Both the position numbers and the translations under genes were made by a program. A DNA stretch of 64,000 nucleotides, from IMG/VR virus record IMGVR_UViG_3300025861_000004, one strand, 5' to 3'. The notes below the pieces were generated by a model. It was given only the letters and a program-made list of their open reading frames with translations. It had not been told where the DNA came from and searched no databases. Below are positions 30,371 to 32,998 of this stretch, in pieces (the first letter of the stretch is position 1; each line of letters starts with the position of its first letter). This DNA comes from a virus (lineage: Duplodnaviria; Heunggongvirae; Uroviricota; Caudoviricetes).

Positions 30371-31006
30371 ATGAACCTCCAATCCTGGTACGTGCTCCTG
30401 TATGTAGCGACCATCGTAGTGGGCATCGTGGTGTGCCTTGGCTCCATTCTGTCGATGGGTGCGGACGCCGAAGCTGACGCCGACGCCGACGTCGACGTCG
30501 AAGCGGACGCTGAGCCAGAGGGTGACGCCGAGGGTGTTGAGGGGGCTGGGCCGATGTCCTGGGTGCTCTACGCGCTCGGGTCGGGCAGCGTTCCCACGGG
30601 CCTGGCGGTCGCGATAACCACCCTGATCTTCGGGACCACGGGGTTGATCGTCACCCGCCTCTTGTCGGCCTACCTGTCGTCCGGTTGGGTTGGGTTCTTG
30701 TCCCTCGTCATGGCCGTCGCTTCGATCTTCCTGCTCGGGCGACGACTATGCCTGCTGGTTGGTCGGTTCTTTCCGACGCACGAGCACCACAGCGTGACGG
30801 CCGAGTCCCTGGTGGGATCAACCGGGGAGGCGACGAGTGACGTCGGGGCTGACTCGGGGTACGTCGGGGTGTACGACGACGTGGGCAGCTACCACGTGCT
30901 CAAGGCCCGAGCACTGGAGGGGCCGATCCCCAAGGGGGAGCGCGTCATGGTCGCCGGGTACGACGCGGACACGGGAGTCCACAGCGTCATTCGGGAGCCT
31001 CAGTAG
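30371..31006 (+). CDS. NfeD-like membrane protein (C-terminal OB-fold)
   Basis: Several transmembrane segments, an acidic DAEADADADVDVEADAEPEGDAEG linker, and a C-terminal GYVGVYDDVGSYHVLKARALEGPIPKGERVMVAGYDADTGVHSV typical of an NfeD beta-barrel. Confidence 0.6.
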   Translation: MNLQSWYVLLYVATIVVGIVVCLGSILSMGADAEADADADVDVEADAEPEGDAEGVEGAGPMSWVLYALGSGSVPTGLAVAITTLIFGTTGLIVTRLLSAYLSSGWVGFLSLVMAVASIFLLGRRLCLLVGRFFPTHEHHSVTAESLVGSTGEATSDVGADSGYVGVYDDVGSYHVLKARALEGPIPKGERVMVAGYDADTGVHSVIREPQ

Positions 31007-31042
31007 TCACATCCGGGCCTTGGCCCGTCACAAGGAGAACCT

Positions 31043-32998
31043 ATGTTGCTCGTACTTCTCGCCCTTCTTGGGGCACTCCTCCTGCTGGGGCCGGTCGTCG
31101 TCCCTGCGATCGCGGGGATTCATCTAGCCAGCGCGGCGACCATCATCCTCATGCTGCTCGGACTGGTGCTGCTCGTCGTGAGCACCGTCATCGGGGTCAT
31201 CTCCAAGCTGTACGTGCGCACGAGCTCCTCCTCGGCGCTCGTACGGACCGGCATGGGAGGTATGCGGGTCGTCAAGGACGGGGGCACCTTGTTCATTCCC
31301 GTGATCCACAACGCGACCCGCGTGACCCTCCAGACGGTGCGACTCGCGGTGGAGCGCAAGGATTCCGACGCCCTCATCACCCACGACAAGCTGCGGGCCG
31401 ACATCCACGCGGAGTTCTTCGTTCGCGTCCAGCCGGACGACAGGTCGATCGTCAACGCATCCCGCAGCTTCGGGGACAAGATGGATACCGAATCCATCAA
31501 GCGGGTCGTCGAGGACAAGCTCGTCTCGGCGCTCCGCCAGGTCGCCGCCACCAAGACGCTGGAGGAGCTCAACACCAAGCGCGACGAGTTCATGCAGGAG
31601 GTACGCAGCGTGCTCACCGGGGACCTGGAGGCCAACGGCCTGACGCTGGAGACCGCGACGATCTCGCGGCTCGACCAGACCAACCCCAAGGCGCTGCGGG
31701 ATGACAACATCTTCGATGCCCAGGGCAAGCGGGCCATCGCCGAGATCACCCAGCGACAGCTCACCGAGCGTAACGCCATCGAGCGACAGGGCGAGCAGGC
31801 GCGCACCGAGCAGGACGTGGCGACCCGACAGAAGGTCCTGATCCTTGAGCAGCAGCGCACCGAGGCGGAGCTCGCGCAGAAGACGGACATCGCGGCCGTG
31901 ACGGCCAAGCAGAACCAGCGTGCCCAGGAGCAGGCTCTCCTGACGAACCAGGCCATCGAGCTCGCCAGGGTCGATCAGGCCCAGACCCTCAAGCTCGCCC
32001 AGGTTCGACAGGAGCAGGCGGTCCAGCTTGCTCAGGTCGACCAGGCCCAGGCGCTCGCCGAGGCCCAGGTCCGGCAGGAGCAGGCGGTCAGGCTGGCCCA
32101 GGTGGGTCAGGCTCAGGCCGTCAAGCTCGCTGAGGTTGAGCAGCAGCGGACCGTCCGGCTGGCCGACGTGCAGCAGAACCAGGCGGTCGACATCGCCGAC
32201 CGGCAGCGCGCCACGCAGGTCGCGGACGCCGAGAAGAACAAGGCGGTAGCAGAGGCCAAGCGTGCAGAGGCGGAAGCCGAGCGAGCTCGCGCGATCCAGC
32301 AGATCCAGACGGTCGAGGTCGAGGCCCAGGCGGACCGGTTGCGCAAGCAGAAGGTCATTGAGGCCGACGCGTTGGCCGAGCAGAAGCTCATCGAGGCCAA
32401 GCGTGGTGCCGACGCCAAGGCGTACGTGATCGAGAAGGAAGCAGCGGCGCAGCAGTCTTCCGCTGCCGCTGCCGCTGAGGCGCTCCTCAAGAAGGCTGAC
32501 GCCGAGGCCAAGGCTCAGATGATGCGTGCCGAGGCCGACTCCAGGGCCCAGACCCTCCGTGCCGAGGGCTCCCGCGCCGAGGCTCTCGTCCCCGTCCAGG
32601 TGGCCCAGCAGCAGATGGAGGTCGAGCGTCAGCGCGTCACGGTGCTCAAGCAGGAGATGGAGGCTCGTACCGAGCACGGCGCGGCCCAGCAGGAGTTCGA
32701 GCTCACCAAGCTGCGGATCGAAGCTACGGCCCGCGTGCAGATCGAGACCGCGAAGGCCACCGTCAACCTCCTCGGCAAGGTGAACGCCAACGTCTACGGC
32801 ACGCCCGAGGACGTGGCGAAGATGACCGGCCACTTCATGCGCGGTATGGGGCTCAGCCAGATGGTCGAGGGGGGCCTCGCGGGGGCCTCCGAGACTGTCC
32901 GCGCCACCGCGGCTCAGGCGGTCCAGCAGGTGGCCGAGGTCGCCAAGGACCTCGTGGGCAAGAAGGACGCCCCCGCCCTGCCCAGCAAGTCCGCGTAG
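31043..32998 (+). CDS. SPFH/band-7 flotillin-like protein
   Basis: An N-terminal transmembrane segment, then VRTGMGGMRVVKDGGTLFIPVIHNATRVTLQTVRLAVERKDSDALITHDKLRADIHAEFFVRV (SPFH domain), then a long A/Q/E-rich coiled coil with degenerate repeats. It pairs with the upstream NfeD gene as in yuaF-floT / yqiJK. Confidence 0.7.
   Translation: MLLVLLALLGALLLLGPVVVPAIAGIHLASAATIILMLLGLVLLVVSTVIGVISKLYVRTSSSSALVRTGMGGMRVVKDGGTLFIPVIHNATRVTLQTVRLAVERKDSDALITHDKLRADIHAEFFVRVQPDDRSIVNASRSFGDKMDTESIKRVVEDKLVSALRQVAATKTLEELNTKRDEFMQEVRSVLTGDLEANGLTLETATISRLDQTNPKALRDDNIFDAQGKRAIAEITQRQLTERNAIERQGEQARTEQDVATRQKVLILEQQRTEAELAQKTDIAAVTAKQNQRAQEQALLTNQAIELARVDQAQTLKLAQVRQEQAVQLAQVDQAQALAEAQVRQEQAVRLAQVGQAQAVKLAEVEQQRTVRLADVQQNQAVDIADRQRATQVADAEKNKAVAEAKRAEAEAERARAIQQIQTVEVEAQADRLRKQKVIEADALAEQKLIEAKRGADAKAYVIEKEAAAQQSSAAAAAEALLKKADAEAKAQMMRAEADSRAQTLRAEGSRAEALVPVQVAQQQMEVERQRVTVLKQEMEARTEHGAAQQEFELTKLRIEATARVQIETAKATVNLLGKVNANVYGTPEDVAKMTGHFMRGMGLSQMVEGGLAGASETVRATAAQAVQQVAEVAKDLVGKKDAPALPSKSA

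Follow-up and report, generated by a model that had tools for sequence, protein, structure and literature searches.

The window considered here is the whole 64,000-nucleotide stretch of IMG/VR virus record IMGVR_UViG_3300025861_000004 (Caudoviricetes), and the present analysis concerns two adjacent genes at positions 30371-32998 of its plus strand, the first encoding a YqiJ/NfeD-type membrane protein and the second a flotillin. That the pair represents an NfeD-flotillin operon of the YqiJ/YqiK type is well supported, and so is its status as accessory cargo of an uncultivated, jumbo phage-like genome measuring at least ~420 kb. The parts of the cassette are the following.

30335-30373, plus strand: promoter-like motif (CAGCTCCG, 28 nt, ATG), recognised from its fixed spacing, its aligned copies and its conservation in relatives
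30371-31006, plus strand: YqiJ/NfeD-type gene, 211 aa, established from the open reading frame (ORF), homologues, hydropathy, an AlphaFold2 (AF2) model and the ratio of nonsynonymous to synonymous substitution rates (dN/dS)
31014-31027, plus strand: short GC-rich hairpin CGGGC-CTTG-GCCCG, past the NfeD stop codon and ahead of the ribosome-binding site of the flotillin gene
31032-31037, plus strand: Shine-Dalgarno sequence AAGGAG of the flotillin gene, read from the sequence and conserved in the related contigs L006, L001 and L002
31043-32998, plus strand: flotillin (YqiK-like SPFH2) gene, 651 aa, established from Band_7, phmmer, AF2 and Foldseek, and dN/dS
31948-32130, plus strand: 33-nt repeat, 5.6 copies, within the flotillin gene, encoding AQVRQEQAVxLAQVxQAQA coiled-coil units
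33004-33042, plus strand: next copy of the promoter-like motif, 6 nt past the flotillin stop codon, at the downstream edge of the two-gene unit

The 651-aa protein belongs to the SPFH/Band 7 superfamily and to the flotillin (SPFH2) family. Its residues 62-238 match Pfam PF01145 (Band_7) with 64.1 bits for a cutoff of 23.6 (E 2.3e-17), and phmmer aligns residues 75-436 with human flotillin-1 (E 9e-9). Band_7 is the only family reported by Pfam for this protein; the Flot model PF15975, on record for a Myxococcales homologue (L038), was not matched. In the AF2 model, which like all flotillin structures computed here is a monomer model, a hairpin of two transmembrane (TM) helices (residues 2-63) leads into the SPFH domain (62-238) and then into helices covering residues 223-352, 364-514 and 521-578, the long ones reaching 130-150 residues. 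Foldseek places chains of flotillin complexes (9l3g, 9bq2) at ranks 1-3, followed by prohibitin, stomatin, erlin and HflK/C, and the SPFH domains of flotillin-2 and stomatin superpose on the window flotillin with template modelling (TM) scores of 0.7-0.8, normalised on the target. Homologues that are 45-50% identical are themselves named YqiK or flotillin in their source records. An initial annotation made from the letters alone had described a flotillin with a TM anchor, an SPFH domain and a long coiled coil carrying repeated AQV..QEQAV units, and all of these elements were recovered. The units are encoded by the 33-nt repeat, which corresponds to 11 codons, and the protein shows a strong 11-residue period. 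Length differences between homologues in the coiled coil amount to 11, 11, 22 and 55 residues, and the window protein carries an 11-residue insert of its own; a gap of ~37 residues in one more distant homologue is the exception to the multiples of 11. From the sequence and the models, the coiled coil of the window flotillin is of the hendecad type.

The 211-aa protein had been placed by the initial annotation at exactly the coordinates found here. Its hydropathy profile has three hydrophobic segments, and its parts succeed one another in the order TM1, acidic D/A/E linker, TM2, TM3 and C-terminal OB fold. The AF2 model, built on a shallow alignment of six homologous sequences, places helices at residues 3-31, 76-98 and 104-133; residues 29-73 form a disordered acidic stretch, and residues 151-208 a beta domain of five strands (predicted local distance difference test score, pLDDT, 76-85), so that the OB fold expected at the C-terminus of an NfeD-type protein is present. 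Neither Pfam nor the model reveals a protease domain. At the sequence level, PF21001 (YqiJ_N) scores 22.6 bits, just below its cutoff of 23, and is matched by 10 of the 11 aligned homologues (best value 1e-18), only one of which matches PF07290 (YqiJ_OB). Named relatives are limited to DUF1449 proteins from Planctomycetota and Myxococcales. When the sequence was compared with PDB chains nothing meaningful emerged, and comparison of folds alone worked. Of the two Pfam families that the initial annotation had expected, PF01145 is found in the flotillin well above its cutoff and PF01957 (NfeD) stays below threshold in its partner (18.9 bits, cutoff 29.1, E 1.7e-3). This shortfall is expected of NfeD2-type proteins, which resemble classical NfeD very little in sequence; for the NfeD partners of bacterial flotillins, Hinderhofer et al. 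(2009, PMC2636767) described a fold that is conserved although the sequences are only weakly similar. For neither protein of the cassette is there a family in PHROGs or PADLOC.

The two genes are on the same strand, 36 nt apart, and have the third-position GC (GC3) of genuine genes, 0.83 for NfeD and 0.90 for the flotillin, in a window with 66% GC. The NfeD gene is preceded by one copy of a motif that recurs throughout the element. Searched as CAGCTCCG-N28-ATG, the motif occurs 20 times in the window, for 0.04 occurrences expected from shuffles. The element-wide pattern, composed of tCAGCTCCGatcc, ~12 nt, CGAC, 8 nt and ATG, is present at 27 sites of the window, with a fixed distance of 36 nt between the start of the box and the start codon; examples are found at 7271-7309 on the minus strand and at 19514, 27502, 28580, 30335, 33004, 34244, 44945, 51889, 57453, 61662 and 63583. 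In most copies CGAC stands 8 nt ahead of the ATG, and in none is there a ribosome-binding site. The core in front of the NfeD gene occupies 30335-30342, exactly 28 nt ahead of the ATG at 30371; the initial annotation, which located this copy at 30332, was right to put the pair behind the element's own motif. The downstream box of this copy, ~12 to 9 nt before the start, is the variant ccGGTAgg and not the usual CGAC, and the copy is conserved, variant box included, in relatives L001 and L006. Motif copies also occur in relatives L001, L006, L009 and L011; none was found in L002-L004 or L012.

With boxes at about -36 to -29 and -12 to -9 from the start codon, the motif would fit a promoter of the sigma-70 family, possibly of the extracytoplasmic function (ECF) type. 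The genes behind it having no Shine-Dalgarno sequence, these features suggest that the mRNAs are leaderless and that the motif has a dedicated sigma factor, possibly one of ECF-like type. Since the NfeD gene too has no Shine-Dalgarno sequence, its mRNA would be leaderless, and from the geometry and the conservation of the motif at 30335, expression of the pair would start there. The flotillin gene has no motif of its own and carries the conserved AAGGAG site instead. A motif before NfeD, a Shine-Dalgarno sequence only before the flotillin and a new motif after the flotillin stop codon argue that the two genes form one unit. The hairpin at 31014-31027 has no U tract. Folded singly, the intercistronic stretch gives a small stem in four versions (the window, L006, L001 and L002), with whole-stretch energies of -6.7 to -11.3 kcal/mol; RNAalifold returned no consensus hairpin across versions, from a poor alignment. 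No terminator-like site was seen between the flotillin unit and the unit of the next motif. The genes downstream, encoding 186, 211 and 464 aa, were considered as further parts of the system and rejected, as none accompanies the cassette in other lineages; the first and the third each stand behind a motif copy of their own, and the second directly follows the first. The 186-aa protein starts with a region of TQATSP repeats at its N-terminus, for which 3.1 copies of an 18-nt repeat at 33044-33099 code.

Comparison with related contigs bears on whether the cassette is functional. The dN/dS ratio is 0.23-0.27 for NfeD and 0.29-0.33 for the flotillin overall, with 0.13 in the SPFH domain, and the ratios of the cassette genes are equal to or lower than those of neighbouring genes. 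The pair is kept at 76-91% nucleotide identity in relatives from four other sequencing runs (L001, L006-L008), together with the motif and the Shine-Dalgarno sequence, and gene order is the same in related contigs from five other samples. As judged from these substitution patterns, both genes are under purifying selection in the lineage of the element, and the ratios of 0.23-0.33 along with retention of the pair argue that both are functional. A near-identical 37-kb contig of the Joint Genome Institute (JGI), L005, is 99.985% identical to window positions 20563-41006, with three differences in ~20.4 kb, among them T301A in the flotillin (L005 position 11381, window 31943). A gene of the NAPRTase family (nicotinate/nicotinamide phosphoribosyltransferase; 28616-30025, plus strand), just upstream of the cassette, belongs to this lineage only and is absent from L001 and L006-L008.

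The carrier extends far beyond the window. Proteins encoded at the window ends are found on two European Nucleotide Archive (ENA) contigs, one of 331.5 kb and one of 60.7 kb, both of which are 100% identical to the window where they overlap it (ERZ27257442 k141_840356 and k141_764754); other contigs of the 0.2-1 Mb size class carry the end proteins too. Together they span at least ~420 kb, above the 200 kb that, along with virion and packaging genes, defines a jumbo phage. By coordinate arithmetic, the 331-kb contig ends within a 210-nt tandem repeat, at window position 14,886, and the other contig starts at the edge of an insertion sequence (IS) element. The tandem repeat itself (14450-15860; 6.7 copies, 94% identical, in-frame units of 70 aa) lies within the C-terminal region of a helicase-like ORF of 1102 aa (12590-15898) and accounts for the low GC at 14-16 kb. 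The genes of the window are short and dense, mostly without family matches, and share the common promoter motif. Those with recognisable products encode DnaJ, an HD phosphohydrolase, a helicase, an AlkB-like oxygenase, RNase H, RNA ligases, PTH2, methylases and NUDIX; a GmrSD-like protein and genes resembling those of nicotinamide adenine dinucleotide (NAD) salvage are also on the element. Several window proteins match small PHROG families, the members of which are mostly in large phages. Two RNA genes complete this inventory.

56024-56383, plus strand: full-length transfer-messenger RNA (tmRNA; Rfam 162 bits, tag peptide ANDNSVRLAA)
7897-7971, minus strand: tRNA-Ile with the unusual anticodon AAT

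A tblastn search with ten concatenated ORFans of the window gave a single match in phage records, from which it follows that the element has no sequenced close relative; megablast of the 28-36 kb region against phage and plasmid records gave no match. No identical flotillin protein is on record, and by exact DNA search the element was not recovered in IMG/VR. A 672-aa ORFan located ~5.4-7.4 kb beyond the right end of the window (L011:2157-4175, minus strand) has full-length homologues, down to E 9e-88. Within the phage collection searched, these are found only in phages of 300-485 kb, namely the Caulobacter CcrSC/CcrBL9 group, the Brevundimonas vB_BpoS phages and the uncultured phage LR745208, and the protein could serve as a lineage marker for the element. 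From its span, its tmRNA and the distribution of these homologues, the element is very probably a jumbo phage, and the earlier view that the pair resides in a phage-like element and not in a host chromosome holds. Elsewhere in the window, an M23-peptidase-NUDIX fusion gene is located at 46227-47249 (minus strand); it and the NAPRTase-family gene may have a function in NAD salvage or counter-defence.

The host is probably a member of the Myxococcota, a view taken, from sequence comparison, because of an IS copy and of the nearest named flotillins. The IS5-like element at ~40451-42840 (transposase 41144-42487) shares 97% protein and 94% DNA identity with a copy in a metagenome-assembled genome (MAG) of the Myxococcales, the flanks being different. 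A further match, with 78% protein (77% DNA) identity, lies in a contig assigned to Aenigmatarchaeota, probably through mis-binning. The nearest named flotillins are Myxococcota proteins of ~50% identity. The lower-GC variable segment that holds the IS5-like element (~37100-44300) also contains helix-turn-helix (HTH) genes and is absent from relatives. Myxococcota chromosomes have YqiJ_N + Band_7 operons of their own, in ordinary contexts. The comparison with host copies called for by the initial annotation could thus be made only at the level of the phylum, with ~50% identity, and its description of such pairs as bacterial housekeeping genes has to be widened, as the pairs are also common cargo of mobile elements. 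Given ~50% identity to any cellular copy, the cassette of the element is not a recent capture.

The same cassette is indeed found on other phages and on plasmids. In Sinorhizobium phage Phosso (469 kb) and in phage csAssE-Sib (151 kb), a 566-aa SPFH/flotillin gene is directly preceded, on the same strand, by a gene for a small TM protein. A profile scan of IMG/VR retrieved a flotillin homologue in 18 contigs, seven of them above 200 kb and six above 380 kb; a YqiJ/NfeD-like ORF abuts the flotillin gene on the same strand in all 17 contigs with a readable upstream region. Flotillin homologues are also present on 313 plasmid records, 260 of which are conjugative. In the one plasmid region inspected, that of the E. 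coli IncK2/Z plasmid NZ_CP027324 (L040 2776-5117), the gene of an 'OB-fold-containing protein' is directly upstream of that of a 'flotillin family protein', the pair being flanked by a NusG/RfaH-like gene and by type IV pilus genes; it is a pair of conjugative IncB/O/K/Z-type plasmids, and such a plasmid-borne pair is also reported in PMC8549364. The pair is therefore not unique to this element, and belongs to a known, annotated kind in a new lineage. In a rough neighbour-joining tree, the window lineage and L002 share a branch of their own among YqiK-like proteins of both cellular and viral origin; Phosso groups with twelve IMG/VR contigs in another clade, in a part of the tree where cellular sampling is thin. 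L002 is a 31-kb contig with a 58%-identical flotillin. It also encodes a second Band_7 protein (316 aa, 1276-2226, plus strand) ~8 kb upstream and a family-A DNA polymerase (12499-15270, plus strand) just downstream of the flotillin. At eight loci of the Phosso clade the pair is embedded in a conserved block of about eight genes, where an XpaC-like gene (PF10112) directly follows the flotillin gene in all eight cases and TelA (PF05816) is present in six. At one other locus, on an 84.6-kb IMG/VR contig, the gene directly downstream of the pair encodes an FtsH-like protein of 642 aa with AAA and Peptidase_M41 domains (L020:6055-7983, plus strand), and PspA is a neighbour at one locus.

Considering these data, a mechanism may be envisaged. 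The NfeD-flotillin pair would be transcribed during infection as one leaderless bicistronic mRNA. The flotillin would oligomerise on the host inner membrane, at its cytoplasmic face, the resulting cage or dome would enclose a patch of membrane, and the NfeD partner would dock through its OB domain, as may be imagined from solved SPFH complexes. Such a cage is proposed because of the flotillin-1/2 and HflK/C-FtsH structures. As to function, it may tentatively be suggested, by analogy, that the assembly stabilises or compartmentalises the host membrane and keeps it sealed and energised through the long infection of a giant phage, in the manner of an imported envelope-stress response. In B. subtilis, the sigma-W envelope-stress regulon includes yuaF-floT, yqeZ-floA, xpaC-yaaN and pspA (PMC3498285). 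This parallel and the XpaC, TelA, PspA and FtsH neighbours found elsewhere favour membrane protection or protease control over a replication or assembly compartment. It is also conceivable, though doubtful, that giant phages repeatedly carry a modular membrane-stress toolkit behind their own promoters, which would seal the membrane or blunt membrane suicide effectors, the hendecad-quantised length of the coiled coil setting the size of the cage. The forms of this putative toolkit would be NfeD-flotillin alone, as in the window, or accompanied by XpaC-TelA, a PspA or FtsH-like neighbour being seen at single loci. Taken as a whole, from identity and organisation to mechanism and function, the explanation of the pair as membrane-acting cargo of a jumbo phage is held with moderate confidence.

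Several observations weigh against this explanation. No virion or packaging gene (terminase, portal, capsid) was found in the window and its 10-kb flanks, about 84 kb in all, and PHROG scans of ~40 window proteins gave a weak partial match to major-head families; since no virion gene was seen, the name of phage is one that we infer. In the near-identical contig L005, W64 of NfeD is replaced by a stop codon (L005 position 10000, window 30562) with a GTG right after it. A split NfeD is possible there, and the intact protein may be dispensable. The XpaC, TelA and FtsH neighbours are absent from the window element, where unrelated ORFans with their own promoters lie downstream, so that the functional proposal is made by analogy. 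Finally, according to a phage paper of 2026, it is unclear what role a phage SPFH gene plays (PMC13239085). Flotillin was not mentioned in the huge-phage literature found by search.

Other explanations have to be considered. The initial annotation had also thought of superinfection exclusion and of interference with defence, and in this model the flotillin cage would block the entry of competing phage DNA, or would sequester or blunt membrane-targeting abortive-infection effectors. That the cassette is mobile-element cargo in both phages and plasmids, that it stands behind a phage promoter motif and that the element carries other genes of host conflict (methylases, the GmrSD-like protein, NAD-salvage-like genes) would agree with such a device. 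We nevertheless regard it as rather unlikely, as neither protein matches a PADLOC family, no exclusion or anti-defence activity of any SPFH protein appears in the literature searched, and the neighbours of the cassette in other phages are stress-response genes and not defence genes.

The nature of the carrier may also be questioned. A megaplasmid or another giant extrachromosomal element, on which the cassette would serve as it may on conjugative plasmids, would account for the absence of capsid, portal and terminase genes over ~84 kb and for the many plasmid homologues, among which is the IncK2/Z pair beside pilus genes. This is unlikely, since no replication-initiator, partition, relaxase or type IV secretion domain was detected among the window proteins scanned, since the genes present are of the kinds usual in jumbo phages (RNA ligases, RNase H, PTH2, NUDIX, AlkB-like oxygenase, methylases, tmRNA and PHROG families of large phages) and since, in the phage collection, giant phages alone have homologues of the flank protein.

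Also unlikely is a role in the control of membrane proteases, which would be the closest variant of the membrane-stabilising idea. Here the cage would enclose FtsH or another protease, as HflK/C does, and would shield unstable phage proteins or readjust proteolysis in the host. The structural matches include HflK/C-FtsH cages, an AAA + M41 gene follows the flotillin gene on one IMG/VR contig, and the archaeal partners of NfeD type are proteases acting on stomatin (PMC2636767). Against this, the NfeD-like protein here is devoid of a protease domain, the link to FtsH is seen at one of 20 loci only, and the window protein is of the flotillin and not of the HflK/C type.

It is highly improbable that the cassette is a passenger without a role in infection, recently captured and decaying. 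The premature NfeD stop in one population variant and the variable region just upstream, where the NAPRTase gene is restricted to this lineage, could be read in this way. The dN/dS values point in the opposite direction, and so do the conservation of pair, motif and Shine-Dalgarno sequence across relatives that differ by ~20% in DNA, the ~50% identity to any cellular copy and the recurrence of the cassette in many unrelated phages. Lastly, the initial annotation had itself raised the case that would undo its proposal, namely that the pair is an ordinary yqiJK-like housekeeping operon of a host chromosome and the window no mobile element; in spite of the Myxococcota chromosomal operons, of a tmRNA, normally a chromosomal gene, and of a GC content of 66% that fits such hosts, this is extremely improbable in view of the 20 fixed-spacing copies of one promoter motif, the mostly short ORFans with a single phage match for ten, the lack of core metabolic or ribosomal genes among ~50 window proteins scanned, the confinement, within the phage collection, of the flank-protein homologues to phages of 300-485 kb, the gene order kept in related contigs from five other samples and the flotillin being only ~50% identical to its closest cellular counterpart.

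What the analysis provides for this window is chiefly a solid annotation of the cargo of a new jumbo-phage lineage, which spans at least ~420 kb and probably infects Myxococcota. That giant phages and conjugative plasmids keep the cassette under selection suggests a portable, self-sufficient function. Bacterial flotillins are still without a clear physiological role, and the literature searched treats the occurrence of SPFH genes in phages as unexplained (PMC13239085). Phosso, as a cultured carrier, or an IncK plasmid would allow clean tests. The association with XpaC and TelA in one phage clade provides a concrete hypothesis for such work, that of an imported envelope-stress response.

Among named systems, the closest in layout are E. 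coli yqiJ-yqiK and the plasmid pair of OB-fold protein and flotillin, which belong to the SPFH2/NfeD2 group (Hinderhofer et al. 2009, PMC2636767) and have the same gene order. With yqiJ-yqiK the window pair shares a three-TM protein of ~200 aa with a C-terminal OB domain followed by a flotillin of ~560-650 aa, as well as the Pfam families Band_7 and, just below its cutoff in the window protein itself, YqiJ_N. However, the window flotillin is only ~32% identical to the E. coli-type copies, over residues 55-451, its coiled coil is longer than in the nearest cellular homologues (by 55 residues in one block and 11 in another), and the pair, unlike yqiJ-yqiK, is on a giant phage-like genome behind the element's own promoter motif. 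From B. subtilis yuaF-floT (NfeD2-FloT) the window pair differs in several respects. Orthology with FloT is ruled out, the window flotillin reaching 43.3 bits on the NCBIfam model NF058507 for an equivalog cutoff of 700, its membrane anchor and the N-terminal region of the NfeD-like protein are of the YqiJ type, and there is no third gene resembling yuaI. In Phosso and csAssE-Sib, the small upstream TM proteins align with the window NfeD-like protein, whereas the flotillins are 23-30% identical to that of the window and the phages are otherwise unrelated to the element; the Phosso copy belongs to a separate clade and has XpaC and TelA directly downstream, both of which the window lacks. Finally, the eukaryotic flotillin-1/2 cage (9bq2, 9l3g) and the HflK/C-FtsH complex (7wi3, 7vhq), with their SPFH domains and long helical walls, give the best matches in sequence and fold, at ~21% identity, the window flotillin being distinguished by an anchor made of a two-helix TM hairpin.

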